Position numbers and translations under genes: made by a program. The notes under the pieces were generated by a model. That model did no database searches. It was not told the DNA's origin and was given only the letters and a program-made list of their open reading frames with translations. DNA of 64,000 nt, from the NCBI GenBank assembly GCA_963837395.1, contig CAWINI010000003.1, positions 430,889-494,888 of the forward strand. Direction: 5' to 3'. Source of the DNA: an uncultured bacterium. GTDB taxonomy: Bacteria > Acidobacteriota > HRBIN11 > JAKEFK01. Positions within the stretch are counted from its first letter, which is position 1, and each line of letters begins with the position of its first letter. Shown piece by piece: positions 2,245-63,934 of this stretch.

Positions 2245-3209
2245 AAGCAATCCGCGTTGAAAAAGTAGGCGGACCTGAAGTATTGCAATTACGAGATGTG
2301 CCGGTGCTTGAACCAGGCAAAGTACAAGCGCGAATTAAGCTCGAAGCAATCGGCGTAAATTTTATTGATGTCTATCATCGAACCGGTTTATATCCACTTC
2401 CATTGCCTTTTATTCCAGGCGGTGAAGGCGCAGGAATTGTTGATGCTATCGGACCGGATGTAACTGAAGTGAAAGTAGGAGATCGTGTTGCATATGCGAT
2501 GGGCACTGCGAGTTATGCAGAATACGTGGTTATGCCTGCATGGAAATTAGTGAAATTACCGGAATGGATGTCAACGCAAGATGCCGCTGCTGTGATGTTG
2601 CAAGGCTTGACTGCTCATTATTTGTTACGCAGCACATATGAAGTAAAAAAAGGGGATCCGATTATGGTTCATGCCGCGGCAGGTGGTGTAGGTTTGTTGA
2701 TGGTTCAAGCGGCAAAACAACTTGGAGCATTTGTAATCGGAACAGTTTCCACTGAAGAAAAAGCGCAAACCGTGCGAGAAGCAGGCGCAGATGAGGTGAT
2801 CTTATATACGAAACAGGATTTCTTAGAAGAAACGAAAAAGATTATGCGTGGCTCTGGAGTTGCTGCAGTTTATGATTCGGTGGGCCAATCAACATTTGAA
2901 CGCAGTCTTGATTGTTTACGACCTAGAGGCATTTTAGTTTTATTCGGACAATCCAGCGGTCCGGTTCTATCGTTTAATCCGTCCGCACTTGCACAAAAAG
3001 GATCGTTATATTTAACACGGCCGAGTCTCGCACATTACATGCTCACGCGAGAAGAATTGATGCAACGAACATCGGAATTATTTGATTGGATTCAATCAGG
3101 CGCAGTAAAACTTCGCATCGATTCCACTTTTCCTTTAGCGAAAGTTGCTGATGCACATCATAAACTCGAAAGCCGGGCCTCCAGCGGTAAGATTCTCCTA
3201 ACTCCCTGA
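2241..3209 (+). CDS. qor: NADPH:quinone oxidoreductase, a zinc-type medium-chain dehydrogenase/reductase.
   Basis: 'MKAIRVEKVGGPEVLQL...GVNFIDVYHRTGLY' and Rossmann motif 'AAAGGVG'. Its ATG overlaps the upstream stop as ATGA. Confidence 0.85.
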   Translation: MKAIRVEKVGGPEVLQLRDVPVLEPGKVQARIKLEAIGVNFIDVYHRTGLYPLPLPFIPGGEGAGIVDAIGPDVTEVKVGDRVAYAMGTASYAEYVVMPAWKLVKLPEWMSTQDAAAVMLQGLTAHYLLRSTYEVKKGDPIMVHAAAGGVGLLMVQAAKQLGAFVIGTVSTEEKAQTVREAGADEVILYTKQDFLEETKKIMRGSGVAAVYDSVGQSTFERSLDCLRPRGILVLFGQSSGPVLSFNPSALAQKGSLYLTRPSLAHYMLTREELMQRTSELFDWIQSGAVKLRIDSTFPLAKVADAHHKLESRASSGKILLTP

Positions 3210-4757
3210 CCGCAAAGGCACAGAGTCTTGAATTTTTGATTGTGGCAGCAGAACGGTTACGGTCGTACCACTCCCTTGTTTACTCTGTACTTCGATGCGG
3301 CCGCCATGTTCTTCAATATTTTTTCTGGCAATCGGGAGTCCTAAACCACTGCCTCCTGATTTTGTAGAAAAATAAGGTTCAAATAATCGCGGAAGAATTT
3401 CCGGCGGCACTCCCTGTCCGCTATCATGAATTCGAGTCCTCACGAACCCATTTGGATCGCGATCAGCTTCCACAATAATTTTGCCCTGACCATTAATGGC
3501 CTGTAATCCATTCTCAATAATATTCATCAACGCACCGCGTAATTTTTCGGGATCTCCTTTTACCGGCGGCAGATCCGGCTCAAACCTGGTTTCAATTTCA
3601 ATCCCTTCAGGCAAATGACTTCCATAGCTATTCACAAGATCTTGAAGAAATTTATCCATACGAATTTCTTCACGATCTAAGATTGATGGTCTACCATATT
3701 GCGAAAAATCAGATACCAGGCGCCGCAGCGCTTTTACCTGTCTTTGAATTGCATCACTACAACTCAAAAGAACTTTTTCAAAATCCGGGGATCGGTCATA
3801 CCACACCCGCATTAAATGTTCGACCGCAAGCTGAATCGGAGTTAGCGGATTTTTAACCTCATGCGCGACCCGCCGCGCCATTTCAGCCCATGCGGAAAGG
3901 CGATTGGAACGGATGATATCGGAAATATCCTCAACCAGCACTACTGCTCCTGTCCATTGTTCGTTATCAAATAGAGGTACATACACCAGCCGGAAGTTCT
4001 GCTCGCGGTTGGTCAAAAAAATTGAGACCTCTTTTATTTGAAAATGTTCAGGGCTTTTAATGAAATCATCCAGAGTACGTTGAATATCGGACAATGGGGC
4101 GTTTATCCCGATTAGATCACTTAGTGGGCCGCGATAATCAGAATCGGCGCCAAACATTTTTATGGCCGATGGATTCATTGTTGTTACATTCATAGTACGA
4201 TCAACAGATATTACACCCGTAGTAATATTGTTGAGAATGTTTTCGATATATGCCCGGCGTTGATCCAGAGTCTGTCGTTGTTCCGCCAGTGAAGCCGCCA
4301 TGGCATTAAATGCTCGAACTACTTGCAAGAATTCGTCGCGATACACCGCAGTAATCCGGTGTTGCAAATTGCCCCTGGCAAATTCTGCTGCACCTTCGAT
4401 CAACACATGCACCGGCCGCGTGAAACGGCTGGCCAGGAACCAACCGAGTAACGCTGAAAGCAAGACCAATCCTGCCCCCGCAAGAACCATGTATTCCTTT
4501 AGCGCATTGATTTCACGTTCCACGCTCCGTTCTTCAATTTGAAATGGAATAGAGATGATCATTTCTTGTTTTACTTTGCCGCGATAAATCCGGCCGCTTA
4601 AATTCAGATATTGAAGATCGCCGATTTGGATCTGTCCTACACTATGTTTTTGTCCGCGCAATGTAAGATCAACATCCGCTTTTCCATCAATCAATTCGCC
4701 CAGGAATCCTGCGTCATATAATTCTTCCCTGCTGGTTGCGATTAAGTCTCTTCGCAA
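3198..4757 (-). CDS. Sensor histidine kinase with TM, HAMP, PAS, HisKA and HATPase_c domains. The true N-terminus may lie upstream and may be joined to ORF 4814..7558.
   Basis: H-box 'AHEVKNPLTPI' and G-boxes 'DSGQGVPPE' and 'GGSGLGLPIARK'. The TTG start in the track is arbitrary and the frame is open upstream to about 4880. Confidence 0.8.
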   Translation of the reverse strand: MRRDLIATSREELYDAGFLGELIDGKADVDLTLRGQKHSVGQIQIGDLQYLNLSGRIYRGKVKQEMIISIPFQIEERSVEREINALKEYMVLAGAGLVLLSALLGWFLASRFTRPVHVLIEGAAEFARGNLQHRITAVYRDEFLQVVRAFNAMAASLAEQRQTLDQRRAYIENILNNITTGVISVDRTMNVTTMNPSAIKMFGADSDYRGPLSDLIGINAPLSDIQRTLDDFIKSPEHFQIKEVSIFLTNREQNFRLVYVPLFDNEQWTGAVVLVEDISDIIRSNRLSAWAEMARRVAHEVKNPLTPIQLAVEHLMRVWYDRSPDFEKVLLSCSDAIQRQVKALRRLVSDFSQYGRPSILDREEIRMDKFLQDLVNSYGSHLPEGIEIETRFEPDLPPVKGDPEKLRGALMNIIENGLQAINGQGKIIVEADRDPNGFVRTRIHDSGQGVPPEILPRLFEPYFSTKSGGSGLGLPIARKNIEEHGGRIEVQSKQGSGTTVTVLLPQSKIQDSVPLRSGS

Positions 4758-4813: not shown

Positions 4814-7558
4814 CTACTGGCGAATCGACCTGCGAAGGGGCTCCCGTCCGTAGAGATATTGAGTAATGGTTTCTGACACAACCGAAAATGAATTCAGCGC
4901 GCGATCGGTAACTTCGGCAGCACGTTTTACATAAATGTAATTCCGGATTAGTGCAGTGAGTGAAAGTAATGGAACGAGTGAGAATAATACAAATGCAATC
5001 AACATTTTCTGGAAGAAACTAAATCGAATCGGAGTTTCTTCCTGGAAGTGAAGTAACAAATACGGTTTAAAGAAGAAGACGAAAGTTAATGTAAACGCAA
5101 GGAGCCAGAAAAAGTTCAGCAGTACAAGACCTATGATTAGAACGAGATGCGAAAGTGCTTTTCGCACAGGCACTGCAAGAGCGGCAAACCCATCCTGAAG
5201 ATGAAAATAATAAACATTAAATCCCTGACCGCTGCAGGTTTGTCGAACCCAGACACTTCCGGTTTGTTCAAGTGCATCTCTAGCACGATCCACTCTTGGC
5301 GAAACATCAGGATCTGATTGATATATGGGATGCCAGAACGAATCATACACATTTAGATCGGGAACGATTGATCCAGGCCGCTCCGGCCGCTGACGAAATA
5401 ATTCCTGAAAAGGACTTTCGGAAGGAACAAAAGTCAAATTTTCATGGTTGGCCATTGCTTCAACCACAAGATAAAAAGAATTATTTACAATACGGACACT
5501 AATCAAAATCGGTTTCTTAATTGTTCCAAATAAGACATTAGCCGATTTCGTATTCCAGTCATTTCCCGCACCACGACCGGTTACATTGATGTTCAATGAA
5601 GGCAAAGCAAGCGAGAAACGGCTTAAAAGTTGTCCATTTAAACTGTACAAGCTGACTGCAGATCGCAAACCCTGCCGCGCCATTTCCGTACGGATCCAAA
5701 GCCGATATGCAAGATCAGGAATGCGGGTATCAAGGGACACCGTACCAACTGCGCGATCGAGATCCTGTAATGAAATGTTCACTGCCTCCTGAACGTGTTT
5801 TCGGATTTCGTAAACTTGTGGCGCTGCAACGCTCTCAATGTATTTCTGTTGAAAATCTTTTGTGTAATGAAATCGGGTGAAATAAAAGACAACGCTGATT
5901 GCGGAACACAAAACTACCGTAATGATAAATCGCGTTAAGAGATTTACGTGTTCAAACCAATTCCAAAGTCCTGGTGTGTAATAAACGAAAAGTGAAATCC
6001 CAAGAAACAATGCTGCTGCTGGAATCAGCGGCATTGAAAAGGAAGGCTGGAAGATAAAGAAAAATGCAGCGAAAGCCGCAATCTGAGTTCCCGCAACTGT
6101 AAGTGCTTTCCATTTTGTTAATGGAAGTTTTCTTATGAAAAACGAAAACAGCAATGAAATTACGACAGTAAATGAAATGTCCAGCCATACTAAACCGAAT
6201 GCAGTAGAAGCTTGTGCAACTTCACCTTCTTCAAAGAAGAATGGCTGAAATCCCATAACGCTTCCGGTGACAAATTCTTTTTGAAGCTTGAAATACGCGA
6301 GAAACAAATATCCAACAAGGAAAGATGAAAGAAATAATGCCGCAATTCGGAAAGCTTTGTTATTGCTTTTCAAATGAAGTTTCAATCTTCGAAACAGCAG
6401 AACTAATGAGAAAACTGCATTCAATGCAAAAAATGAAGTGAAGATTAGATGTCCTGGTGTGTGAAAAATATTTCCATAACCGGCCACATGAAAAACATTT
6501 GTGTTGAACAATGTGCGCGTGCCAAATGTCGAAAATGATCCGAGCGTCAGCACAGAAAGAATTGTGCAACCCAGGAATATCAACCAGTAAGGAACGAGGC
6601 CCGGGCATCCTGGTTGTCCGCAAAAACCAACAAAACTAAATGTCAGAATTATTGTTGTGTAGATGAAGAAGACAAGCGCTAAGCATTCGATCCACCAGTG
6701 CAAATATCGGAATTGAGAAAGCAACATCTTGCCGTAATGTTGTTTGTCATAAACGGCAGAGAGCGAAAATTCATCAGTAATTTTAAAACTCGAAATTTTT
6801 AAGTCAGGCGAGCCTACAGTTGATTCTGTACTGGTGTATAAAAGTCTTGGACGAACAGGTAATCCATCCGTTAAGCGGTTATAAGTGCGCAAATAATAAT
6901 TTTCGACACCGTAATCGGCAGCGATTGGCAACAAGACGGTTACATAATAGAGATCTTCCTTAACACTCATTTCGCGTTTTACTTTCAGGAATTGTTGGTG
7001 CAGATCGTTATAGATGGAAACTTCTTCGGCGCCATAGGCAGGAAAATCTTCGTGGGTGCGTGGTTGACCCCGCCATGTTAGGAGTCGTCCTTCACGATAT
7101 ACGCCCCACCAGTAATCAACATCTCCAAATTTTTGCTGTAGCCGGATTTGGATTTGACCGGGATTCATGCCCGCAGTGCCGCGTAGTTCGTCTTGTATTG
7201 AAGTGAGCCGATCACGAGCTTGCTGCAAAAAGCGAGTAGTGCGTTCCTGTACTACTTTTGTACTGCGATCAACTTCACGTTGAAAATTTGCTTCAGAATA
7301 ATTGTGGTAAGCAACGAGCTGAAAGAATTCAACCAACAGAAGAATGGTGATTGAGAACCAGAGCAGCGCAACACCATAACGAGGTCTACCTTCAATAACC
7401 TTGAGCAGTAGTGGAATTACTGCAATAAAAAGAAGGGCAGCTAAGAAAAGGGCAACAGCATGAGTATGAACCTGCGGTTCTATCCGCATCCAGAGGTAAA
7501 GGAGTAGAAACGGTACGACGATAAAGCAGCGCTTTATTTCCGGGGACAGCCATTTCAT
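4814..7558 (-). CDS. Large polytopic membrane protein (about 14 TM segments plus two soluble loops). It is probably the sensor module of the adjacent histidine kinase.
   Basis: Many hydrophobic segments in a 914-aa ORF. It sits directly upstream and co-oriented with HK ORF 3198..4757, whose open frame overlaps its 3' end. Confidence 0.55.
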   Translation of the reverse strand: MKWLSPEIKRCFIVVPFLLLYLWMRIEPQVHTHAVALFLAALLFIAVIPLLLKVIEGRPRYGVALLWFSITILLLVEFFQLVAYHNYSEANFQREVDRSTKVVQERTTRFLQQARDRLTSIQDELRGTAGMNPGQIQIRLQQKFGDVDYWWGVYREGRLLTWRGQPRTHEDFPAYGAEEVSIYNDLHQQFLKVKREMSVKEDLYYVTVLLPIAADYGVENYYLRTYNRLTDGLPVRPRLLYTSTESTVGSPDLKISSFKITDEFSLSAVYDKQHYGKMLLSQFRYLHWWIECLALVFFIYTTIILTFSFVGFCGQPGCPGLVPYWLIFLGCTILSVLTLGSFSTFGTRTLFNTNVFHVAGYGNIFHTPGHLIFTSFFALNAVFSLVLLFRRLKLHLKSNNKAFRIAALFLSSFLVGYLFLAYFKLQKEFVTGSVMGFQPFFFEEGEVAQASTAFGLVWLDISFTVVISLLFSFFIRKLPLTKWKALTVAGTQIAAFAAFFFIFQPSFSMPLIPAAALFLGISLFVYYTPGLWNWFEHVNLLTRFIITVVLCSAISVVFYFTRFHYTKDFQQKYIESVAAPQVYEIRKHVQEAVNISLQDLDRAVGTVSLDTRIPDLAYRLWIRTEMARQGLRSAVSLYSLNGQLLSRFSLALPSLNINVTGRGAGNDWNTKSANVLFGTIKKPILISVRIVNNSFYLVVEAMANHENLTFVPSESPFQELFRQRPERPGSIVPDLNVYDSFWHPIYQSDPDVSPRVDRARDALEQTGSVWVRQTCSGQGFNVYYFHLQDGFAALAVPVRKALSHLVLIIGLVLLNFFWLLAFTLTFVFFFKPYLLLHFQEETPIRFSFFQKMLIAFVLFSLVPLLSLTALIRNYIYVKRAAEVTDRALNSFSVVSETITQYLYGREPLRRSIRQ

Positions 7559-7569
7559 ATGTAGATTCT

Positions 7570-7745
7570 ACTTCGTGATAATAGACATTAATTGTGCTGG
7601 TTTTCAACCCGACGTCGTCGAGACCTATTAATCACGGAAATTCGGAAGGCACAGAATTCACGGAATGCTTATTTTAGTCACGAAAAGACTGAAATCACGG
7701 AATATGATTTTCTTAATTCAGTGCATTCAGTGCTTCCGTGATTAA
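7570..7745. promoter_or_regulatory. Array of TCACGGAA-type octamers (four direct copies flanked by two inverted copies) in a divergent intergenic region.
   Basis: Direct copies atcacggaa (7631), ttcacggaa (7657), gtcacgaaa (7678), atcacggaa (7694). Inverted copies ttcgtgat (7573) and ttccgtgat (7733). Confidence 0.5.
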
Positions 7746-13928: not shown

Positions 13929-15040
13929 ACAAAAATCATATCCAGCGAAAGTTGGGGAAGAACTCTACCGAGCCGGTTAAACATTTTCATTAGCGGAACA
14001 TATTTTTGTTGATTCCATTCCGCCTGTAAATAATCACGCCGCGGATTTCCACTCAGCCAGTTTAACAGTACCTCCACATAAATTCCTGTGCTAACCACAA
14101 CTTTAAATCCGGACTTGGGAAGCACTTCATCGCGAAGTTCTTTATAAGACAACTCGTGCAAATGATCGGGCGAATAAGGACGTTCCCTGCCTTCAATTCT
14201 GGACAACAATCGTTCGCGATTTGGAGTCGTTAAGATCAGCATCCCTCCTGGCTTTAATATCCGCTTCCATTCTTCCAGCGCAAGTGCGGGATCGTTTACA
14301 TGTTCAATGATTTCGCCAACGAATAATGCATCAAAATATTCACTTCGAAATGGAACATGCAAAACATCGGAAATAAACCAGTAATTCTGCGGCACTTCCG
14401 CTTTCCGTTCCTTAATCAGGCCCGGATCTAGATCACCGGCAAAAATCTTGAATGGCCAATTCGGTTGAATATCAGTAAACAAACAGCGTCCGCAGCCAAG
14501 ATCCAACGCATTGCCGCCAGTGGGAATATGACGCGTAAATAATTTCTTCAAAACATCCAGCTTGTAGTAATGCATTGTTGGAAGAAACGGCAGAGGTGTT
14601 CCGTAACCGCCGGCGGCGTGTAAGCGCGCATAAAATTGCTTGAGTACTTGAGGATCATCAATTTTCATGATCACGTGTTCAAGCTGTTCAATCTTCATCG
14701 CACCATCACGAAGCACCAATTGAAGGTCCTGGAGCGGATCAAACAGATACGATGGATTCACCCAATACTCGCCACTGGAAATTTTGTTTCCATCCACGAT
14801 CATTTTTACTGAATATTGATCGATGGTTCGGAAGTCTACATGAACTTGAATCAGCCGCTTGCCGGGTGGAAGCTGAAATGACCACCAACCTAAGTGTGTT
14901 TCTGGATGTTCCTGGCGCAGATAGGAATAAATATCAACCGTAAACACGTGCGGCTTCTGGCGGAAATCCAACTCCACCGGAACTGCACCTTGAAATTCAT
15001 TCAGGCGAAAACTTCGCGTGAGTGGCGTTAATGTTTTCAT
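13907..15040 (-). CDS. Class I SAM-dependent methyltransferase with an uncharacterised N-terminal domain.
   Basis: Motif I 'ALDLGCGRCLF' and post-I 'GGMLILTTPN'. Confidence 0.7.
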   Translation of the reverse strand: MKTLTPLTRSFRLNEFQGAVPVELDFRQKPHVFTVDIYSYLRQEHPETHLGWWSFQLPPGKRLIQVHVDFRTIDQYSVKMIVDGNKISSGEYWVNPSYLFDPLQDLQLVLRDGAMKIEQLEHVIMKIDDPQVLKQFYARLHAAGGYGTPLPFLPTMHYYKLDVLKKLFTRHIPTGGNALDLGCGRCLFTDIQPNWPFKIFAGDLDPGLIKERKAEVPQNYWFISDVLHVPFRSEYFDALFVGEIIEHVNDPALALEEWKRILKPGGMLILTTPNRERLLSRIEGRERPYSPDHLHELSYKELRDEVLPKSGFKVVVSTGIYVEVLLNWLSGNPRRDYLQAEWNQQKYVPLMKMFNRLGRVLPQLSLDMIFVCQKATA

Positions 15041-15073: not shown

Positions 15074-15313
15074 TTAGCCGAGCAGCTCGTAAATTTTTTC
15101 CCGCGCCTCCGGGTTCGTATAATAACCATCTTCGGAACGTCGCGGACCTGGAACGACCTTCAAAAAATCACGTGCAAGCATTCCTTCAACAAATACTTCC
15201 ACATCTTTTGGTGAAAAATTCAAACCACGAGCGATTTCTTCCACCGTAGTTTTATGACGCTGGCTCCGGATAAATCGGAGAATTTCAATTTCTTTCTGAC
15301 TTAGTTCTTCCAT
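15074..15313 (-). CDS. Small winged-helix-like DNA-binding protein (hypothetical).
   Basis: 79 aa with 'TTVEEIARGLNFSPKDVEVFVEGMLARDFLKV', which is HTH-like. Confidence 0.4.
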   Translation of the reverse strand: MEELSQKEIEILRFIRSQRHKTTVEEIARGLNFSPKDVEVFVEGMLARDFLKVVPGPRRSEDGYYTNPEAREKIYELLG

Positions 15314-15385
15314 TGTGAGTCTAATTTTGAACAGGACATTCTAGCATAGGTCTCAGCGTCTCAGTGGTCAAAATCCAAATTTTTG

Positions 15386-24390: not shown

Positions 24391-24436
24391 GGGAGCAAAG
24401 TATACCAGATGCCGGATGCCGGATTCCAGATCCTTT

Positions 24437-24505
24437 TTACCGCAGAGATCGCAGAGCACGCTGAATATTTATTATTTCTGCGAACTCTGCGTGCTCTGCG
24501 GTAAA
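24437..24505. repeat. REP-like palindrome TTACCGCAGAGATCGCAGAGCACGC...GCGTGCTCTGCGGTAA.
   Basis: Near-perfect inverted arms. Same family as 20517..20593. Confidence 0.65.
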
Positions 24506-24509
24506 AATT

Positions 24510-28703: not shown

Positions 28704-28785
28704 ACTGTCCTCCTTAGCTTTACAGGCGAGTCAACAAACGACTAGTCTGAAATTATAGCATAGTAAATATTATAGAAATTCTGGC

Positions 28786-28845
28786 TGTAGTGGCGACCGG
28801 AAAGTCGCCTGCTATCAAACTAGGCGACCTTCCGGTCGCCACTAC
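28786..28845. repeat. Nested 24-bp-arm palindrome, TGTAGTGGCGACCGGAAAGTCGCC...GGCGACCTTCCGGTCGCCACTACA.
   Basis: One mismatch between the arms, and each arm is itself palindromic. A second copy lies at 46219..46283. Confidence 0.8.
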
Positions 28846-31377: not shown

Positions 31378-31465
31378 AATCGTAATCTTACTCTTACTCG
31401 TACTCGTAATCGGAAAAAACGAATCGAGTAAGAGTAAGAGTAAGAGTACGATTACGAGTACGATT
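31378..31465 (+). repeat. Hexamer-repeat hairpin element, copy A. AATCGTA-(CTYNTA)n, loop, (TAAGAG/TACGAG)n-TACGATT, ending 2 nt before the ATG at 31468.
   Basis: Left arm aatcgtaatcttactcttactcgtactcgtaatcg, loop gaaaaaac, right arm gaatcgagtaagagtaagagtaagagtacgattacgagtacgatt. Confidence 0.8.
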
Positions 31466-35402: not shown

Positions 35403-35417
35403 GATAAAATAACGTTC

Positions 35418-37646: not shown

Positions 37647-37648
37647 TT

Positions 37649-37673
37649 TGTAGCGCCGGCGGCTCGCCGGCGC
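37649..37673. repeat. 25-bp palindromic repeat TGTAGCGCCGGCGGCTCGCCGGCGC. It is the inverted partner of 37805..37829.
   Basis: Exact reverse complement of the 37805..37829 copy, with 131 bp between them. Confidence 0.85.
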
Positions 37674-37804
37674 GGGTTTGCTTTGCATCTAATTTGTCCT
37701 CTGTGGGTGAAAACGAGCAAATATACTAAAGAATTTCTTCACAATTTAGGCTGTTCATGCTCGCTCCCGCTCGCATAAAACTTTTCAGTGTATTTACTAA
37801 GCCA

Positions 37805-37829
37805 GCGCCGGCGAGCCGCCGGCGCTACA
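37805..37829. repeat. 25-bp repeat GCGCCGGCGAGCCGCCGGCGCTACA.
   Basis: Perfect inverted partner of 37649..37673. A third, similar copy lies at 61853..61876. Confidence 0.85.
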
Positions 37830-37858
37830 AAGCTTCACCACTCTCAAAATTGGGTATA

Positions 37859-38566
37859 ATGTATGGTTTTATGAGGACAACACGGCGGGAGCCGAAGACA
37901 AAGCGAGCAGCGGCAGCATTTTACGACCTTGATGGTACGCTGGTAAAAACGAACCTGGTACATGTCCTGTTTTTTCAAGCCCGTAATCAGCAAGGAATTT
38001 TGCGTAGCATCACCAAAACTGCCACAGTGATGTCAGCGGTTCCGGCTTTTCTGCTGACAGATGCTTACAGCCGTACCGCATTCCAGGAATTATTTTTCAA
38101 GATGTACAAAGGTGAATCGGAGGATCGTATCCGATTTTTGTCTGAAGAATTATTTGAAGATGTAATTCAACCTTCGATTTTTCCGGGTGCATACGATCTC
38201 ATTGAAAAATCACGCAGTCTCGGACTTCGCCAGGTCCTTGTTACTGGCGCGCTTGATACCACAGTTGCACCGCTTGCACGTCATTTGAAAATTGATGATT
38301 GGATCACGAACCGATTGGAATTTGTTGACGGATTTGCTACAGGCCGATTGTTGCCGCCAGTAATGGCGAATGCATCGAAAGCATCCTGGATCCGTTCGTA
38401 TGCCGAAAAAGAAGGATTGAGTTTGAGCGCAAGTTATTGTTATACAGATAGCATCAGTGATCTTCCGATGCTATCGGTGGTTGGACATCCCACAGCGGTT
38501 CATCCTGATTTTCGTTTGAAAAGCACTGCAATCTCCAGCCATTGGCCAATTTTAGATTTGAGGTAA
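37859..38566 (+). CDS. HAD-IB family hydrolase (phosphoserine-phosphatase-like).
   Basis: 'AAAFYDLDGTLVKTN', 'LVTGALD' and 'YTDSISDLPML'. The start was moved past the N-terminal extension that translates the repeat. TATAAT overlaps the ATG at 37859 and the next ATG is at 37871. Confidence 0.7.
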   Translation: MYGFMRTTRREPKTKRAAAAFYDLDGTLVKTNLVHVLFFQARNQQGILRSITKTATVMSAVPAFLLTDAYSRTAFQELFFKMYKGESEDRIRFLSEELFEDVIQPSIFPGAYDLIEKSRSLGLRQVLVTGALDTTVAPLARHLKIDDWITNRLEFVDGFATGRLLPPVMANASKASWIRSYAEKEGLSLSASYCYTDSISDLPMLSVVGHPTAVHPDFRLKSTAISSHWPILDLR

Positions 38567-42416: not shown

Positions 42417-42421
42417 ACAAA

Positions 42422-42478
42422 AATTTTTGTCCGCCGCGGCGGACGATCCCCAATGCGGACTAAAGTCCGCGTTCCTTC
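42422..42478 (-). terminator. Two GC-rich hairpins, the second followed by A/T-rich sequence (terminator-like), downstream of 42480..42935.
   Basis: gcggactttagtccgc and gtccgccgcggcggac followed by aaaaattttt on the minus strand. Confidence 0.4.
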
Positions 42479-42479
42479 G

Positions 42480-42935: not shown

Positions 42936-42981
42936 AGGATCTTTGCAACTTTAATAATGCGAATTCGTCTGTTTAAATAAT

Positions 42982-43060
42982 AATCGTACTCAAACTCGTA
43001 CTCTTAATCTTACTCGGAGGATTACGAGTACGAGTACGATTACGAGTACGAGTACGAGTA
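42982..43060 (+). repeat. Hexamer-repeat hairpin element, copy B, ending 7 nt before the ATG at 43068.
   Basis: aatcgtactcaaactcgtactcttaatcttactcg, loop gagg, attacgagtacgagtacgattacgagtacgagtacgagta. Confidence 0.8.
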
Positions 43061-43067
43061 AAAAGAG

Positions 43068-46218: not shown

Positions 46219-46283
46219 TGTAGTGGCGAGCGGAAGCTCGCCTATTCAATTTTGTCGAGGGCGACCTTCCGGTCGCCCCTACT
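46219..46283. repeat. Second copy of the nested palindrome TAGTGGCGAGCGGAAGCTCGCC...GGCGACCTTCCGGTCGCCCCTACTA.
   Basis: Same family as 28786..28845. Confidence 0.75.
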
Positions 46284-46291
46284 AGCGCACA

Positions 46292-46300
46292 TGTTATAAT
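46292..46300 (+). promoter_or_regulatory. Extended -10 (TGTTATAAT) ending 7 nt before the ATG at 46308, a candidate leaderless promoter for the ElbD-like gene.
   Basis: TGnTATAAT is read directly. No SD lies between it and the ATG. Confidence 0.4.
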
Positions 46301-46307
46301 TTCTCCC

Positions 46308-49300
46308 ATGCGAATTTCCCCCTCCTGGATCTTTCGAGGCCGAAACATTTTCTTCGTCGGCGGAACAGGTTTCCTGGGCAAAGTTACTCTCAGCACGCTG
46401 CTCGAGAGATTTCCAGACATTGGCAAAATTTATTTGATGGTTCGGGCTGGCTCAGGAGACGATAGTGAGGAACGATTTTGGAATAATGTTTTTACGTCCC
46501 CGGCTTTCGATCCCATTCGCGAACGTTATGGCGATCAAGTTAAATCATACCTGAGCGAAAAGCTGATTATTGTTGGCGGCGACATCACACACGATAACCT
46601 CGGCTACACCGAAGAACAAGCTCAGAAAATTGCCAGTGACATTGATCTTGTTCTGAATTCATCCGGTAACGTTAGTTTTAATCCTCCGCTGGAAACAGCG
46701 ATGAAAACGAATGTTACCGGCACCAAGAATTTGCTGGCATTTGTAAAACGGATGAAACGTCCGGCGTTTGTTCATACCAGCACATGTTTTGTTGCTGGAA
46801 ATCGAAAAGGTCAAATCTGGGAAGACGATCCAGTGATTGGATATTTTCCGCGCCGCGATGAATTAACAGAGGTAACGTTTTCAGTTGAACAAGAGCTGAA
46901 AGATTCTGAACGTTTAACTCGAAACATTGTTGAAGAAGCGGAGGATGCAACTTTAAACGCTGAATTCAGATCGACCGCGCGCAAACGTTTGATTGAAGAA
47001 GGTCGTGATCCTGATGAAGGCAATACATTAAATTTAGCCGCAGCACGCGAACGAAAAGATTGGATTCGCAATAAAATGAGCGATCTTGGATTGCAACGCG
47101 CGCAATGGTGGGGCTGGCCCAATATTTATACCTACACCAAGAGCATGGCAGAACAATTAATTGCTGCTGAAACTGGAATCGCTCGCGCTATCGTTCGGCC
47201 TGCAATTGTAGAAAGCTCAGTCTCGTATCCATTTCCGGGTTGGAATGAAGGCTTCAATACTACTGCCCCTCTGATTTTGTTTGCATTAAATGGACAAAGC
47301 ATTTATCCACTTAATCAAAATGTGATTCTCGACATTATTCCAGTTGATTACGTTGCATCTGCAATGCTCAGTGTCGCAGCACAAACGATTGTTGAACAAC
47401 CAAGACTTGTTTATCAGCTTTGTTCTGGCGATAGCAATCCGATCAAACTCAGAAGAATCGTTACGCTGCTTGGTCTTTATAAGCGCTCCTATTTTCAAGA
47501 TAAAAAAACCGGTAACCGTTTCTTGAACGCAATTGCTGCACGGATGGAAGCCAGTGCAGTTGAAGATGCACCATTCAGAAAGATTGTTCCGCGATTACGC
47601 GATGCAGTGGAAGAAATTTCAAAATCGTTAGCCAAAACGAAATCATATGGCGTGTTAAGTGGAATAAAAGGGCAACTCAAAAAAGGCGCCGATCATGCTG
47701 AAGCATTTTTGCATGAAGGACTTGAAGCATACGAACAATTTCGTCCATTCACAGTCTTGAACGATTATCATTTCCGCGCTGATAATGTCCGAGCGTTGTT
47801 CGAACGTATGCCTGATGAAGATCGGCAGATTTTAACCTGGGCTCCTGAAACACTCGATTGGTATCATTACTGGCTGAAAATTCACTTTCCTGGTTTGAAC
47901 CGTTGGGTATTTCCAAAAATGGAAGAAATTGGAAAGCCCAAACCAAAGCGTGTTTATACCTACCGCACACTTGTTGAATTGTTTGATTCCGTAACAAAGC
48001 TACATGCGGATCGGATCGGAATGCGGATCGAACGCGATGGAAAGCTTGAAGAATACACTTACGCCGATTTGCGCGAATTAATTCTGCACTGTGCCGCATT
48101 TCTGCGGGGTCATAGCATTGGCGCTGATGATCATGTTGCATTAATTGCTGAAAATTCTCCGGAGTGGGGAATCAGCTATTTCGGTATTATCCGCGCAGGC
48201 GCAACGTCCATTCCAATGGACAAAGATTTAACAACAGATGAAATTGTAAATCTGATCCGCGCGGGAAATGCAAAAGCAATTATTGTTAGCAATAAAATCC
48301 GCCGCAAACATTCAAAGTTAGAAAAGAAGCTGCAAGATCTAAATCTGAAAGTTCATCTATGGACATTTGATGATGTTTTTGCGCTGGGTGATGAGCAAAC
48401 TGAAAAAGAGCAGATTGCACAACTTCCAAAAGCCAGACCAGGAGCGATCGCATCTTTAATATTCACATCAGGCACAACCGGTCATCCGAAGGGCGTCATG
48501 CTGACGCAAAAAAATCTGACCAGCATGATGTCCCAATTGTTGAAGGTTTATGATGTTACAAAGGAAGACGGATTTTTAAGTATCCTTCCTTTGCATCATA
48601 CATTCGAATTTTCTACAGGGTTTTTGCTTCCATTCAGCCGCGGATCGCAAATTACCTACTTGCAAGAATTGACCGGTGATTCAATTTCCGATGCGTTTAA
48701 AACCAGCCATGTCACGATGATGGTTGGCGTTCCAGCACTTTGGGATTTATTGCGCAGACGGATCTTAAACAAATTCGGTGATAAATCGAAAAAACTTGAA
48801 GGCTTCGTGAAGTCTCTGATCAGTGTGAATCGCTGGATTCGTGAAAAAACTTCTCTGAATGTCGGACCATTCTTATTCTTCCCTGTTCATCATGGATTAG
48901 GCGGCCGCATCCGATATCTCATCAGTGGTGGTTCATCATTATCAGAAAAGACGTACGACACTTTTTATGGTTTGGGATTCTCGCTGAATGAAGGTTACGG
49001 ACTAACCGAAAGCTCACCGGTGCTGACTGTCACCCGGCCCGGAGCAAAACCAAAAATCGGAAGTGTTGGTGAAGCCTTGCCTGGCGTGGAAATTAGAATT
49101 TTGAATGCGAATGAAAAAGGTGTAGGCGAAGTGATTGCGCGCGGTCCAAATATCATGTCTGGCTATTATGAAAATAAGGAAGCAACCGAAACAACCATCA
49201 TCGATGGATGGCTTCATACCGGTGATCTTGGATACGTAGATGAAGACGGCAATTTGTTTTTGGTAGGCCGATCAAAAGATCTGATCTTAGGTCCAAGTGG

Positions 49301-50687
49301 AAAAAATATTTATCCTGATGAATTAGAAGATCTGTACCGCGATTCACCTTACGTTAAGGAAATGAGCATTGTTGGTTTGCCTGATCAAAATGGAGAGCGG
49401 ATCGCGTGTCTTGTTGTTCCTGATCATGAACATGATGAATCGCTTTCCCATGATCAGGTTCGCAGGAAAATTGAAGAACACTTCCGAAAGATTGCAGCCG
49501 GACTCCCGGTTTGGAAACGCGTAACAACTCTGGAATTTCAGGATGATGATTTGCCCAAAACCGGAACACGAAAAGTAAAACGGCGTGAAGTGATTTCGAT
49601 ACTGCAAGAACTTCATCGAAAAATTCCTGCCGCACCATTGGAACTTCCGGCATCTTCAGAATTTCAGGCACTCACCGAAATCATTAGTTCTGTTTGCGGT
49701 AAACCAATTTCCGAAATTCACCGAGATACAACATTCGATGAACTGGGATTTGATAGCTTGATGTACACCGAACTCGGTGCAGCTATTGAACATTCAGGCC
49801 GAACACTGCCATCGTTCGAAGCATTAAGTTCGATCACAACGGTCAGACATCTCGCTGATTTCTTGCACGTCTCTTCCAGAACTCATACGGTGGAAAAATC
49901 TACGACACCTGATGAAATTGAAGCGGAAAAGGAAGCTTCATTGCCTTCGTCATTAGGAGACCTTGGCGGAGCTGCCCTGGATTACATGAACGATGTCTTT
50001 TATGACTCCTACATGAAAGCTGAAATCATCGGAAATCAAAATGTACCGGTCCATACCAATTTTATTGTTGCGCCAAATCATAGCTCTCATCTTGATACAG
50101 GATTGGTAAAGAAAGCGCTGGGCGATGCAGGCCAAAATCTCGCGGCGCTTGCTGCAAAAGATTATTTCTTCAACAACAAACTGAAACGAACCTTCTTCGA
50201 AAATTTTACGAATCTGGTTCCGATGGAACGCGAAGGTTCAATTCATGAATCTTTAAAACTCGCAGTTCAAACTTTGCAGAAAGGATTTAATCTTTTGATC
50301 TTCCCTGAAGGCACACGATCGAAGACCGGACAAATATCGGAATTCAAATCCAGTTTGGGTTACCTGGCACTTCGAGCTAAGCGAGGAATTCTACCAATTC
50401 ATCTGAGTGGAACTTTTGATGCGATGCCGAAAGGTACAAAGTTTCCGAAAAAGAAAAAGGTAAAAGCGGTGATTGGTCCATTCCTTTCGTATGAATCGCT
50501 GGAGAAATTGGTTGAAGGCTTACCTCGCAATGATGCGAACCGGTTAATAACTTTGCTGGTCGAACAAATGGTGCGCAAGTTGAAAAATGGTCAAATTCAA
50601 ATGCCTGATTTGAAAGCGGTGCGGCAACAATGGGATCACGAAAACCAGCCCAAGCTTCATGAAAACGCATCCGCATTAGGCGATTAG
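46308..50687 (+). CDS. Four-domain lipid-biosynthesis megaenzyme: fatty-acyl reductase (NAD_binding_4), long-chain acyl-AMP/CoA ligase, acyl carrier protein, and 1-acylglycerol-3-phosphate acyltransferase (ElbD-like).
   Basis: 'FFVGGTGFLGK...YTYTK' (reductase). 'TSGTTGHPKGVMLT' and 'GYGLTES' (AMP-binding). 'LGFDSLMYTE' (PP-binding Ser). 'NHSSHLDTG' and 'FPEGTRS' (AGPAT HX4D). Confidence 0.85.
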   Translation: MRISPSWIFRGRNIFFVGGTGFLGKVTLSTLLERFPDIGKIYLMVRAGSGDDSEERFWNNVFTSPAFDPIRERYGDQVKSYLSEKLIIVGGDITHDNLGYTEEQAQKIASDIDLVLNSSGNVSFNPPLETAMKTNVTGTKNLLAFVKRMKRPAFVHTSTCFVAGNRKGQIWEDDPVIGYFPRRDELTEVTFSVEQELKDSERLTRNIVEEAEDATLNAEFRSTARKRLIEEGRDPDEGNTLNLAAARERKDWIRNKMSDLGLQRAQWWGWPNIYTYTKSMAEQLIAAETGIARAIVRPAIVESSVSYPFPGWNEGFNTTAPLILFALNGQSIYPLNQNVILDIIPVDYVASAMLSVAAQTIVEQPRLVYQLCSGDSNPIKLRRIVTLLGLYKRSYFQDKKTGNRFLNAIAARMEASAVEDAPFRKIVPRLRDAVEEISKSLAKTKSYGVLSGIKGQLKKGADHAEAFLHEGLEAYEQFRPFTVLNDYHFRADNVRALFERMPDEDRQILTWAPETLDWYHYWLKIHFPGLNRWVFPKMEEIGKPKPKRVYTYRTLVELFDSVTKLHADRIGMRIERDGKLEEYTYADLRELILHCAAFLRGHSIGADDHVALIAENSPEWGISYFGIIRAGATSIPMDKDLTTDEIVNLIRAGNAKAIIVSNKIRRKHSKLEKKLQDLNLKVHLWTFDDVFALGDEQTEKEQIAQLPKARPGAIASLIFTSGTTGHPKGVMLTQKNLTSMMSQLLKVYDVTKEDGFLSILPLHHTFEFSTGFLLPFSRGSQITYLQELTGDSISDAFKTSHVTMMVGVPALWDLLRRRILNKFGDKSKKLEGFVKSLISVNRWIREKTSLNVGPFLFFPVHHGLGGRIRYLISGGSSLSEKTYDTFYGLGFSLNEGYGLTESSPVLTVTRPGAKPKIGSVGEALPGVEIRILNANEKGVGEVIARGPNIMSGYYENKEATETTIIDGWLHTGDLGYVDEDGNLFLVGRSKDLILGPSGKNIYPDELEDLYRDSPYVKEMSIVGLPDQNGERIACLVVPDHEHDESLSHDQVRRKIEEHFRKIAAGLPVWKRVTTLEFQDDDLPKTGTRKVKRREVISILQELHRKIPAAPLELPASSEFQALTEIISSVCGKPISEIHRDTTFDELGFDSLMYTELGAAIEHSGRTLPSFEALSSITTVRHLADFLHVSSRTHTVEKSTTPDEIEAEKEASLPSSLGDLGGAALDYMNDVFYDSYMKAEIIGNQNVPVHTNFIVAPNHSSHLDTGLVKKALGDAGQNLAALAAKDYFFNNKLKRTFFENFTNLVPMEREGSIHESLKLAVQTLQKGFNLLIFPEGTRSKTGQISEFKSSLGYLALRAKRGILPIHLSGTFDAMPKGTKFPKKKKVKAVIGPFLSYESLEKLVEGLPRNDANRLITLLVEQMVRKLKNGQIQMPDLKAVRQQWDHENQPKLHENASALGD

Positions 50688-55866: not shown

Positions 55867-55918
55867 TGGAATTCATTGTACGCTGGAATCAATCCCGTCA
55901 TAAACCTATACTGAAATT

Positions 55919-56685: not shown

Positions 56686-56691
56686 ATTGTT

Positions 56692-56735
56692 CTGAGGCCG
56701 GCAGTCGCGCCCTGCCTCCGCAGCCGGCCTCGAAG
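56692..56735. repeat. GC-rich hairpin ctgaggccggc...gccggcctcgaag followed by GGTTATAAT and the ATG at 56747.
   Basis: Inverted repeat read directly. Confidence 0.6.
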
Positions 56736-56746
56736 GTTATAATACT

Positions 56747-60230: not shown

Positions 60231-60307
60231 AACCACGAAGCACACGAAGAAGCACGAAGTAAAAAATACTTCAAAAACCTTTGTGGCACTTCGTGATCTT
60301 CGTGGTT
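60231..60307 (+). repeat. CACGAAG heptamer array (three copies) with a downstream inverted copy (CTTCGTG, CTTCGTGG). It lies upstream of the M20 gene.
   Basis: aaccacgaagcacacgaagaagcacgaagt...ggcacttcgtgatcttcgtggtt. Confidence 0.75.
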
Positions 60308-61876: not shown

Positions 61877-62978
61877 AACTGCTGCTCAAGAATTCGTGCA
61901 GCAACACGTGAAAATGGTGAACGCCATTTTCACGCTTCACTGAAAAGCGTCCACGAACATAGGTTTTTGATTTCAAACCACGCTGCACAGCTTCACAAAT
62001 TTCGATATCTTCTTTTTGAATCTGATCGCTGAACGCTATCGATTCATTCAACGACTCCCATCCTGAAGCCGATCCTGGATCATTGAAGTACCATTCGAAA
62101 ATTGTTAGTGTTTGTTGATGATCGAGCGGTAGTATGTGATTGAATTGCAAATTATCCGGATATATGTTGATCATCCAGTTTGGAAACAGCCAATAATACA
62201 GAGCTTTTGATTCTTCACTTGATCTCACATACCGCCGATCGCGCCCGTGCAAATCTCCGGGCTTCAAGTCTCGAATTGGAGCATGGGCAGAACTGTAATA
62301 GCGGAATGTGTCTACCCGATATTTTTCATAATCCACTTCACGAAACAATTCCGGATGGGCGATTGGAATATGATATCCCTCCAAATAATTATCAATGTAA
62401 ACTTTCCAATTGCAGTTCACAATGTAATCACGCCGTTCAACCAGCCGCATTTTATTTAAATCGACACCCATTTCTTGAACTTCATCGTTGATCTTTCCCA
62501 TGTAGTCTCGAAGCGGCATTGGATGCGATTTCAAATTTACATAAACAAACGGTCCCCAGGATTCTACTGTTGCAGATGGAAGACAAATTTCATCTTTGTT
62601 CCAGTTTTTTACACCTTCAAAATCAGGTTGTGTTAAAAGGCGGCCATCAAGACTGTAAGTCCAGCCATGATATCGGCACTGCAAACTCTTTCGATTTCCT
62701 TTTCCAACAGCAACAGGCCCGGCACGATGGCGGCAAACATTTGACATCGCATGCAGCTTTTCATCGGTCCCATTTGTTACAACCAATGGTTCCCCCGCAA
62801 TTTCGCAAGCATGAAAATCACCCGGACGTTGCAGCAATTCGGTTCTGCTTACTGGCTGCCATGTTTGGGAAAAGATTTTTTGTTTTTCAAATTCTAAGAA
62901 AGCAGGATCGGTGTACCAGCGTGCGGGAATAGTTGAGGCGAGGGATAAGTCCGGTTCGGGATCGTAATCTTTGAACAT
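61872..62978 (-). CDS. Rieske [2Fe-2S] non-haem-iron oxygenase alpha subunit (GbcA / choline-monooxygenase-like).
   Basis: 'CRHRAGPV...LQCRYHGWTY' and catalytic-domain His/Asp motifs. Confidence 0.8.
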   Translation of the reverse strand: MFKDYDPEPDLSLASTIPARWYTDPAFLEFEKQKIFSQTWQPVSRTELLQRPGDFHACEIAGEPLVVTNGTDEKLHAMSNVCRHRAGPVAVGKGNRKSLQCRYHGWTYSLDGRLLTQPDFEGVKNWNKDEICLPSATVESWGPFVYVNLKSHPMPLRDYMGKINDEVQEMGVDLNKMRLVERRDYIVNCNWKVYIDNYLEGYHIPIAHPELFREVDYEKYRVDTFRYYSSAHAPIRDLKPGDLHGRDRRYVRSSEESKALYYWLFPNWMINIYPDNLQFNHILPLDHQQTLTIFEWYFNDPGSASGWESLNESIAFSDQIQKEDIEICEAVQRGLKSKTYVRGRFSVKRENGVHHFHVLLHEFLSSSL

Positions 62979-63062
62979 AATCGTACTCTTACTCTTACTC
63001 TTACTCTTACTCGTACTCTCAATCTAGCTTTCGATTACGATTAAGAGTAAGAGTACGAGTAT
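62979..63062 (-). repeat. Hexamer-repeat hairpin element, copy C. It fills the intergenic gap and, in minus sense, ends ...GAGTACGATT-ATG.
   Basis: aatcgtactcttactcttactcttactcttactcgtactctcaatc, loop tagctttc, gattacgattaagagtaagagtacgagtatg. Confidence 0.8.
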
Positions 63063-63064
63063 GA

Positions 63065-63934
63065 TTATTCCAGTTGCTTTAAGAATTCGGAGGCAACTTG
63101 TTTAACATCGCGGTGATCAACATCGATTTCCGCATTCAGCCGCCTCATTTCATCGGCTGAGATTTTACCACCCAGCTGATTCAACACATCACGCAATTCC
63201 GGATACTGCGCAAGCGTTGCACTTCGAATTACCGGTGCTGCTTCATAAGGCGGAAAATAATGCTGGTCATCTTCCAACACAAACAAATCAAGTTTTGCTA
63301 TAACACCATTTGTCACATCGCCCGCAGCAAAATCTATTTGTTTATTGGCAAGTGCCTTATAACTTAATGTCAAATCCATCACACGCGGCGGTTCCTTGAA
63401 TTTAAGCCCATACAATGCTGCCATTCCAGGATAACCATCTTTGCGTTCCATAAATTCATAACCAAATCCAGCGATCCACTGTGGCGCATATCGTGCCGCT
63501 TCAGAAATCGTTTTGATACCCAGCTTTCGTGCATCTTCACCACGTATCAAAATCGCAAAAGTATTGTTAAAGCCAAGCGGCTTCAACCATTCCAAATTGA
63601 ACTGCTTCACATAACTATCATGGACAATTTTGAATACAGTTGATGCATCATTTTGTGGTTCCATTTTCAGGATCGCAGTCAAAGCAGTGCCGGTGTATTC
63701 AACGTAGGTATCCATCCCACCGGCTGTTAAAGCTTGATGGCAAATAAAGCTTCCACCTAAATTTAGCTTTCTTTGAACTTTTAACGTGGTCTTGTTTTCA
63801 ATTTGCTGCGCGATGATTTCACCCAGCAGTACCTGCTCACTAAAATTTTTTGAGCCAACAACAATTTCATTATTTTTGCTGTTACATCCCGCAAAAGCAG
63901 TGATAATCAGAATCAGGATGAATATTTTTTTCAT
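63065..63934 (-). CDS. ABC-transporter substrate-binding lipoprotein, glycine betaine/choline type (OpuAC-like).
   Basis: Lipobox 'ITAFAGC'. The OpuAC-fold assignment rests on overall resemblance. Confidence 0.75.
   Translation of the reverse strand: MKKIFILILIITAFAGCNSKNNEIVVGSKNFSEQVLLGEIIAQQIENKTTLKVQRKLNLGGSFICHQALTAGGMDTYVEYTGTALTAILKMEPQNDASTVFKIVHDSYVKQFNLEWLKPLGFNNTFAILIRGEDARKLGIKTISEAARYAPQWIAGFGYEFMERKDGYPGMAALYGLKFKEPPRVMDLTLSYKALANKQIDFAAGDVTNGVIAKLDLFVLEDDQHYFPPYEAAPVIRSATLAQYPELRDVLNQLGGKISADEMRRLNAEIDVDHRDVKQVASEFLKQLE

Follow-up and report, generated by a model that had tools for sequence, protein, structure and literature searches.

The GTAG-REPs are short palindromic repeats among which dimers with GTAG on the outside predominate and heterodimers with different stems are found, and an acidobacterial group of RAYTs has been described for them (Di Nocera 2013, PMC3733652). 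Their published range covers stems of 5-13 bp and loops of 2-20 nt. For promoters, the most relevant precedent is a genome survey in which leaderless genes were predicted in 3/3 Acidobacteria genomes, amounting to 9.7-19.4% of genes, on the basis of a TANNNT signal that precedes the start codon by about 12 nt (Zheng et al. 2011, PMC3160421). Both precedents bear on a stretch of 64,000 nt (here called the window) from an uncultured member of the Acidobacteriota, which has a GC content of 44%. We consider it probable that this DNA holds two independent and ordinary things side by side, namely a set of GTAG-REP/REPIN-like mobile repeats and a separate set of leaderless-type sigma-70 promoters.

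The palindromes are described first. A 23-nt unit, GTAG(T/G)GGCGA(C/G)CGGAAG(C/G)TCGCC (family A), occurs four times in the window when up to three mismatches are allowed, compared with 0.00 matches in 100 dinucleotide-preserving shuffles. Its anatomy consists of a GTAG tail, a stem of 7-8 bp of the GGCGAC/GTCGCC type and a 4-nt GGAA loop. The four units make up two inverted doublets, at 28787-28845 and 46220-46282. In doublet 1, the left arm (28787-28809, plus strand, GTAGTGGCGACCGGAAAGTCGCC) carries one mismatch to the consensus and was detected as a hairpin, and the right arm (28823-28845, minus strand) matches the consensus without mismatches; the GTAG ends face outward and the spacer is 11-13 nt long. 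This doublet lies between the divergent promoters of pspA (minus strand) and the Rieske/cytochrome b operon (plus strand). Doublet 2 is flanked by a gene for an HtrA-like protease and an ElbD-like gene, and begins 3 nt past the stop codon of the htrA-like gene. Its left arm (46220-46242, plus strand) is a GAGC/GCTC stem variant that arose by compensatory change, and it forms a heterodimer with the right arm (46260-46282, minus strand). An earlier note on this DNA had placed a nested-palindrome element between pspA and the bc operon and a second copy at 46219-46283, and both are indeed found there; the other sequences that it quoted are likewise at the places it gave.

The palindromes are nested in the sense that every family A unit forms a small hairpin and a single long hairpin is open to each doublet as well. 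The folding energies for single-stranded DNA are about -30 kcal/mol for doublet 1 (z about -10) and about -20 to -22 kcal/mol for doublet 2 (z -4 to -5). In doublet 2, the left unit has a C-to-G and a matching G-to-C change within its own stem (GGCGAGC...GCTCGCC), and this pair of changes preserves the small hairpin and not the long one.

A second family is represented by one further element. The family B unit, GTAGCGCCGGCGGCTCGCCGGCGC, is present in two exact copies in the window against none expected. The left arm (37650-37673, plus strand) begins 3 nt past the stop codon of a PMT-family gene, and the right arm (37805-37828, minus strand) is the sequence that the earlier note had called a 'GC palindrome'. 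The arms form an inverted pair with GTAG outside and a spacer of 131 nt, and the complete inverted repeat extends over 37647-37831; each hairpin has a stem of 8-10 bp and a loop of 3 nt. What had been taken for a generic GC hairpin in the case at 37829-37859 is actually one arm of a second kind of GTAG-REP doublet. With this addition, all three elements in the 64 kb are doublets with GTAG outside, two of family A and one of family B. An unpaired GTAG stands at one end of all four family A units and of both family B units, and all six units are located between real genes.

One more GC-rich hairpin, in the gap between folB and an aconitase-family gene (56694-56731, plus strand; -13.5 kcal/mol, z = -2.4), has neither GTAG nor a T-tract. 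It is an insertion/deletion difference among relatives, being present in L044 and L055 and absent from L047 and L043. As a candidate REP it was ruled out, since it lacks GTAG, fits neither family and occurs only once in the window.

The family A unit is also found far from the window. A motif scan of species-representative genomes returned 35 loci, whose labels include Acidobacteriota (Acidobacteria/Terriglobia/Bryobacterales/Acidoferrum), Armatimonadota, Pseudomonadota (including Dongiaceae), Ignavibacteriae and Bacteroidales (Barnesiella, Muribaculum). Most copies at these loci are likewise doublets with outward GTAG. Over all loci examined, 30 doublets have GTAG outside, compared with 10 adjacent pairs that have GTAG inside. 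The units are numerous in some of these genomes: the acidobacterial MAG JACQDE01 carries the exact motif at 10 sites, and an isolate genome of Barnesiella has 20 units within 8 kb. A metagenome scan with the lineage-specific variant GTAGTGG gave five loci, and three further doublets were found at different sites on metagenome contigs of 42-44% GC (L038-L040). A literature search with the repeat sequence itself returned only unrelated primer matches.

Across all loci examined, the length of the doublet spacer is specific to the lineage. Spacers of 11-15 nt are found in the window, in its relatives L036, L037 and L056 and in L039 and L040, which are low-GC contigs, as is L038 with its 27 nt. Those of Dongiaceae, Pseudomonadota and one Armatimonadetes MAG measure 23-25 nt. 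A Bryobacterales MAG has 34 nt, Barnesiella has 36-38 nt and Acidoferrum has 44-52 nt, with 52 nt also at the Dongiaceae locus L021. Among 36 distinct units, GTAG positions 2-4 are at least 90% conserved, and both partners have changed in five of the eight stem pairs (nine sequences, for example, have G-C in place of C-G). In the same set, 93.8% of stem cells are paired, a value favored by the way the units were gathered, namely by similarity to a palindromic consensus.

A candidate for the enzyme that mobilizes such units exists in JACQDE01. An open reading frame at L015:5120-5794 scores 27.6 bits with Pfam Y1_Tnp, whose cut-off is 23, and contains an HUH-like motif, MPNHIH. Its best NCBIfam match is REP_Tyr_transpos (59 bits, E = 3.7e-16), which falls below the curated cut-off of 80, and its homologues carry the JGI name "REP element-mobilizing transposase RayT". 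Units of the family A type lie on either side of the frame. In tblastn searches, first with another RAYT probe and then with the L015 protein, L015 was the sole locus to yield a RAYT and the window yielded none, and none of the top 120 RAYT homologues is on the window's own contig.

Taken together, these features point to REPIN-like non-autonomous mobile DNA, in which the palindromes would be GTAG-tagged REPs arranged in inverted doublets. By analogy with other REP systems, a single-copy RAYT of the IS200/IS605 Y1 HUH family would recognize the folded single-stranded unit together with its GTAG; cutting and rejoining at the unit is the mobilization step that we infer. Such elements would then be gained or lost in the intergenic DNA of this low-GC lineage of Acidobacteriota. 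The assignment to a REP family made in the earlier note is upheld by the GTAG tail and stem-loop, by the inverted doublets outside genes, by presence and absence among relatives (see below) and by the RAYT-like gene flanked by units elsewhere.

The breadth of labels among the motif loci invites a more adventurous reading. An essentially identical 24-nt unit, GTAGGGGCGA(C/G)CGGAAG(C/G)TCGCCC, might mean that one RAYT-REPIN system has crossed phyla, or that the system is extremely old and has kept a frozen recognition hairpin. We regard this as a tentative and somewhat doubtful proposal, and it is conditional in that contamination of the MAGs or convergence would void it. If true, such a system would conflict with the prevailing view of REPINs as vertically inherited and lineage-specific. 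The occurrence of one REP unit across phyla is the sole aspect of these repeats that might interest specialists in mobile elements.

Comparison with close relatives reveals how the elements behave over short evolutionary distances. Doublet 1 is absent from five metagenome contigs (L049-L053) whose flanks are nearly identical to those of the window on both sides; in these contigs, 39 nt of unrelated sequence replaces the 73-nt segment that holds the doublet in the window. The relative L057, a contig of 3.0 Mb, does carry doublet 1, in the form of a GAGC/GACC heterodimer. L036, L037 and L056 carry doublet 2. L055 lacks it, and the intergenic region there, of 48 nt, holds what is possibly a decayed remnant, TTAGGGG...GCCCCGAC. 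The family B element is missing from the corresponding site, upstream of a gene for a HAD-IB hydrolase, in L045, L046 and L057. No clean empty sites are seen where the REPs are lacking; the sequence at these places is unrelated or perhaps decayed, and the polarity of the differences can be read as gain or as loss. By this comparison, the REP elements appear to come and go as the genes and their promoters stay. Sites of this kind are usable as strain markers.

These patterns bear directly on a different view of the palindromes, in which they are dedicated cis-regulatory structures (terminators, attenuators, operators or mRNA-stabilizing hairpins) and not mobile repeats. The position of doublet 2 gives this view some appeal: it starts 3 nt past the htrA stop codon, its left arm is followed by a T-rich spacer, and 46225-46242 was scored as a terminator-like site. 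Moreover, doublet 2 is conserved between the window and L037/L056, and the doublets fold very stably. However, the genes next to the 23-24-nt unit are unrelated to one another, both in the window and at no fewer than 35 loci that carry the labels of several phyla, and both doublets are missing from close relatives that retain the flanking genes and promoters. Doublet 1, being situated between divergent promoters, has nothing there to terminate. Nor is there a match to an Rfam family: the whole window gave none at gathering thresholds, and the region around doublet 1 gave only sub-threshold noise from miRNA-like hairpins. For these reasons, we consider it quite unlikely that regulation is the primary identity of the palindromes. 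A secondary use is another matter, and it is plausible from its position that doublet 2 serves as a terminator or 3'-end stabilizer for htrA, which is compatible with its being a REP. Liang, Rudd and Deutscher (2015) reportedly found that a REP affects translation of the upstream gene when it follows the stop codon within about 15 nt.

The proximity of the palindromes to TATAAT boxes raises the question of whether repeat and promoter form a unit, as the earlier note had implied. On this account, a mobile element composed of a palindrome, TATAAT and ATG would bring an outward promoter with it and make genes leaderless on landing. Several juxtapositions could be cited in its favor. A TATAAT follows the end of each family A doublet at a distance of 11-12 nt, the doublet in L038 is directly followed by TGTTAAAAT, 9 nt and an ATG, and the end of doublet 1 provides a -35-like TCGCCA located 16 nt before the distal TATAAT of pspA. 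The relatives that lack the repeats decide the matter against such a module to a large extent. L055 retains TGTTATAAT, 7 nt and the ATG of the ElbD-like gene without the doublet; L049-L053 retain both pspA TATAAT boxes without doublet 1; and L045, L046 and L057 retain the TATAAT of the HAD gene without family B. Conversely, the doublets of L039 and L040 have no adjacent -10 box, and the sequence that leads from REP to TATAAT lies outside the repeat. A module of this kind is therefore very improbable, and the implied linkage of palindrome and promoter finds no support.

Because promoters persist in REP-free relatives, we take them to be independent of the palindromes. The REPs would neither carry nor form the promoter, and the juxtaposition appears to reflect where dispensable DNA is available, after the stop codon of one gene and ahead of the promoter of the next, rather than a composite arrangement. 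The possibility that a REP supplies a -35 element to pspA was likewise set aside, given that the distal TATAAT it would serve (28769-28774) is unconserved in L057 and the proximal extended -10 box is conserved. This proximal box, TGcTATAAT (28752-28757, minus strand), is kept in L049-L053 and in L057. It would give pspA a leader of about 40 nt that includes the SD sequence AAGGAGG, from which it follows that leadered, SD-dependent genes and leaderless-type genes would coexist in this organism.

Across the window, TATAAT behaves as expected of a functional signal. It occurs 10 times on the two strands, compared with 27 +/- 5.6 in dinucleotide-preserving shuffles, and is the rarest hexamer of its own composition class. 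Of these copies, 8/10 lie outside genes, in the ~6% of the window that is non-coding, a count that takes in the copy at 37855, which is upstream of the real HAD start and inside an over-extended open reading frame. Depletion combined with intergenic placement is the pattern expected of -10 box function, and the boxes would accordingly be sigma-70-type -10 elements of the genes downstream.

A subset of these putative promoters stands unusually close to start codons. With a -10-like hexamer defined as having at least 5/6 matches, A at position 2 and T at position 6, and with shuffled upstream regions as the control, such a hexamer ends 6-7 nt ahead of the first start codon in five genes, where 0.54 would be expected (P about 5e-4), at an offset that was guided by the literature and picked after the data were seen. 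This corresponds to an enrichment of about 9-fold, and other offsets show about 0.4 per position. The five genes start at 7558, 13928, 35418, 46308 and 55919, where the starts used are the first start codons of the open reading frames, some of which are possibly wrong. For such genes the mRNA would be leaderless or have only a few leader nucleotides, in keeping with weak use of SD sequences. Indeed, SD 4-mers precede 11/54 genes against 8.6 expected, which is no enrichment and agrees with the weak SDs noticed earlier. The general suggestion that this organism makes leaderless transcripts likewise gains statistical support from the five genes and from the conservation seen at the ElbD-like gene, as far as sequence can tell.

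The ElbD-like gene (46308-50687, plus strand) is one of the five. It encodes a product of 1459 aa with fatty acyl reductase, AMP-binding, PP-binding and acyltransferase domains. An extended -10 box, TGTTATAAT (46292-46300, plus strand), is followed after 7 nt by ATG 46308, the gap given in the earlier note. This ATG is the first start codon of the frame, and a 1459-aa product with an equivalent start is called in relatives. It is also credible as the true start because the next credible one would delete the Rossmann motif GGTGFLG, found at residues 18-24. Both TGTTATAAT and the 7-nt distance are invariant in three lineages (the window, L037/L056 and L055), and the 7-nt spacers vary and are pyrimidine-rich (TTCTCCC, CACTGCC, CTTTTCC). 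No SD is found upstream of the ATG. An AUG start that lacks an SD, together with a -10 element 7 nt away, is compatible with transcription from the A of the ATG. Since box, distance and ATG are kept both with and without the REP, the gene is a good leaderless candidate, and this ether-lipid gene offers a clean case that can be tested.

The remaining four genes share the 6-7-nt geometry and might also produce leaderless mRNAs. A remA-like gene has TATACT (55907-55912, plus strand) 6 nt before GTG 55919 and is a candidate for a leaderless or short-leader transcript; the TATACT, 6 nt and GTG are kept in L047 and L055, and L043 has TATACT, 7 nt and ATG. A DinB_2 gene has TAAAAT (35405-35410, plus strand) 7 nt before ATG 35418 and is a leaderless candidate, and its hexamer is kept in L057 inside the 3' end of the upstream gene, where conservation is not independent evidence. 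Two candidates are on the minus strand. One is the gene for a 207-aa protein with no Pfam match, which has TATGAT (13935-13940) 6 nt before ATG 13928 and whose relatives are likewise called at 207 aa. The other encodes the N-terminal part of a large sensor kinase and has TAGAAT (7565-7570) 6 nt before ATG 7558.

The other two cases that the earlier note had named as leaderless differ from the ElbD-like gene. In the HAD-IB hydrolase gene, a TATAAT -10 box (37855-37860, plus strand) lies 10 nt upstream of the in-frame ATG 37871, a case for which the earlier note gave no spacing. L045, L046 and L057 keep the box, there at a distance of 11 nt. The protein is annotated at 269 aa here versus 231 aa in most of the listed relatives, the latter length corresponding to a start at 37871, and the 269-aa frame starts inside the family B element. 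An ATG overlapping the TATAAT is not in frame in the relatives, and the start is therefore taken to be ATG 37871. The predicted mRNA leader would then be very short, at about 3-6 nt, which is leaderless only by the loose definition of a 5' UTR of <=5 nt.

In the aconitase-family gene, TATAAT (56738-56743, plus strand) is separated by 3 nt from ATG 56747. The start itself is real, judging from the conserved N-terminus MHI(V/I)LPARLK. The hexamer is not conserved, being replaced by GGTAAT in L044, AATAGT in L043 and GATAAT in L047. In L047 the gene begins 8 nt past the folB stop codon, a gap that indicates a folB-aconitase operon. In E. coli, transcription starts about 6-10 nt past the -10 box, and by that spacing a 3-nt gap is too short for transcription to begin at the A of the ATG. 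Gap, unconserved hexamer and proximity to folB together ruled out this gene as a leaderless one. The 'same arrangement' said to recur at three sites has spacings of 7, 3 and 10 nt and so is not a single arrangement, and of the three named cases the ElbD-like gene stands as a candidate, the aconitase-family gene falls and the HAD gene would have a short leader instead. The ElbD-like gene, singled out from the start as the strongest case, is the sole one of the three with true leaderless geometry as read from its promoter region.

The aconitase-family gene also figures in a further alternative, according to which the TATAAT-like boxes are A/U-rich, SD-independent translation-initiation regions on polycistronic mRNAs and no gene is leaderless. 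Such regions would fit the weak use of SDs, and they would account for the context TAATACT-ATG that this gene conserves with its 3-nt gap, 8 nt past folB in L047. The ElbD-like, DinB_2 and aconitase-family genes each follow a gene on the same strand, as polycistronic transcription would have it. We nevertheless judge this alternative unlikely. TATAAT is depleted relative to hexamers of the same composition and confined to intergenic DNA, a pattern expected of a promoter sequence, and the enrichment peaks sharply at 6-7 nt, as far as a transcription start lies from its -10 box. The ElbD-like box includes the TG of an extended -10 element, and it is the box and its distance that are invariant and the spacer that varies. 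Finally, the boxes of pspA and of a kinase gene (40219) lie 23-48 nt upstream of the starts, as in ordinary promoters. Sigma-70-type promoters, some of them close enough to the start codon to yield leaderless mRNAs, would explain these observations better.

There are practical consequences for annotation. REP doublets can generate spurious N-terminal extensions, as in the HAD protein of 269 aa versus 231 aa. Gene callers tuned to SD sequences will misplace starts where SD use is weak and about one gene in 10 looks leaderless.

Neither half of this picture is of a new kind: the palindromes belong to the known GTAG-REP/REPIN type, and leaderless-type promoters were already predicted for Acidobacteria. 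Compared with the leaderless genes described for Actinobacteria and Deinococcus-Thermus (Zheng et al. 2011, PMC3160421), the window genes are alike in that the hexamer ends 6-7 nt before the ATG, with its first T at -12 or -13, in that no SD is present and in that the full TAtaaT form is the one expected at medium GC. The fraction in the window, ~5/54 genes, is also within the 9.7-19.4% given for Acidobacteria (PMC3160421). They differ in that the window candidates are known, and their promoters and leader lengths read, from sequence only. The remA-like gene would have GTG as its start, a codon that serves leaderless initiation poorly, and the HAD gene would have a short leader instead of none.

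The BIMEs/REPs of E. coli, which act as 3'-end mRNA stabilizers or as terminator-like elements, offer a parallel for doublet 2 and the left arm of family B, both of which begin 3 nt past stop codons, and for the hairpin of doublet 2 with the T-rich tract that follows it, where a like function would be putative. Doublet 1, between divergent promoters, occupies a position that is uncommon for REPs in general (PMC3733652).

The closest system to the window units is that of the GTAG-REPs/REPINs and their RAYTs (Nunvar 2010; Bertels & Rainey 2011, PMC3116915; Di Nocera 2013, PMC3733652), with which the TnpA-REP system of E. coli (PMC3479197, PMC8266576) is grouped. Some differences are apparent. 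With 23-24 nt, the window units fall toward the lower end of the range, the family A spacers are very short in the window lineage (11-15 nt), and the host is an uncultured, low-GC (44%) acidobacterium, whereas the RAYT-like gene is in JACQDE01. REPIN populations are usually described as lineage-specific, whereas the identical sequence of the window unit is found in records labelled as several phyla. There are also many likenesses. In both, a terminal GTAG is joined to a short, GC-rich, imperfect palindrome; the units lie outside genes as inverted doublets with GTAG outside that can form two small hairpins or one long one; heterodimers have differing stems, more than one family can be present per genome, and elements are present or absent among strains; and a Y1 HUH transposase gene is flanked by the units, but here in another acidobacterial MAG.

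A second family of GTAG-tagged REP sequences occupies positions 37647-37831, where two exact copies of GTAGCGCCGGCGGCTCGCCGGCGC are arranged in inverted orientation with 131 nt between them. The deposited open reading frame of the HAD-IB hydrolase gene, which has a length of 269 amino acids, starts at 37757, inside this element. In most of the relatives listed, the homologous protein is called at 231 amino acids. From these sequence comparisons, the deposited start appears to be over-extended, and we take the ATG at 37871 as the real start of the gene.

Another annotation that differs from those of relatives involves two adjacent minus-strand ORFs of 519 and 914 amino acids (3198-4757 and 4814-7558), with 56 nt between them. 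In combination, the two correspond to a signal transduction histidine kinase of 1450-1453 amino acids that is called as a single protein in relatives. The split in this genome probably results from a frameshift, from pseudogene formation or from faulty assembly.

Among hexamers of its composition class, TATAAT is the rarest in the window as a whole, with 10 copies present versus 27 expected, and eight of these 10 reside outside genes. Shine-Dalgarno 4-mers are not enriched upstream of start codons in the window (11 of 54 genes versus 8.6 expected). An M23 peptidase gene has its first start codon at 15364, and an intergenic TATAAT (15118-15123) precedes this codon by approximately 240 nt. The opposite strand there reads TATTAT, which precedes the gene with its start at 15040 by 78 nt. 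Judging from this arrangement, the two hexamers may constitute a divergent promoter pair, or they may point to a long leader or to a small RNA.

The spacer between folB and the aconitase gene (56686-56746), which is 61 nt long and contains a GC hairpin, represents an insertion/deletion difference relative to L047:10690-10703, a related locus in which the gap between the two genes is just 8 nt. Of the four relatives examined, three retain the sequence TAATACT-ATG, in which TAATACT immediately precedes the aconitase start codon, and the relative L043 carries AGTACT-ATG.

REP units are also found in other genomes. A RAYT-like ORF in the acidobacterial MAG JACQDE01 (L015:5120-5794) has tandem partial REP units at its flanks and an in-frame REP unit at 5479-5502 that separates the HUH motif from the C-terminal part and encodes ...KAGDLPVAPTA.... 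The Bacteroidales isolate Barnesiella sp. WM24 (NZ_SPPC01000007.1; L018:600-6610) has 20 units of the family A type in 8 kb, mostly as doublets with GTAG outside and 36-nt spacers, and in most of these units the loop-closing pair is a T·G wobble. On a low-GC metagenome contig (L038:2440-2600), a family A doublet follows an (AAAGATT)n run and a gene ending in ...GMGGMY, which looks like the C-terminus of GroEL; directly after this doublet come TGTTAAAAT, 9 nt and an ATG.

The window also carries three long palindromes made of tandem hexamers, of the form (TACTCK)n, spacer, (MGAGTA)n, every one of them between genes (31378-31465, 42972-43063 and 62976-63068). These constitute a repeat class separate from the GTAG REPs. 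A further palindromic repeat type, GCGGACTAAAGTCCGC / GCAGACTAAAGTCTGC, lies upstream of remA in a relative (L055:10650-10810), and the similar sequence gcggactttagtccgc is present in the window at approximately 42417-42479, upstream of a gene whose start is at 42416. Heptamer-like repeats of the CGCAGAG and CACGAAG types form palindromes at 24434-24507 and 60231-60307, and also at two Dongiaceae loci (L017:280-420 and L021:1500-1700). At both Dongiaceae loci, REP doublets are nested within inverted runs of (CGCAGAGA)n or (CGCGGAGA)n, an arrangement reminiscent of published cases in which GTAG REPs have inserted into palindromic targets.
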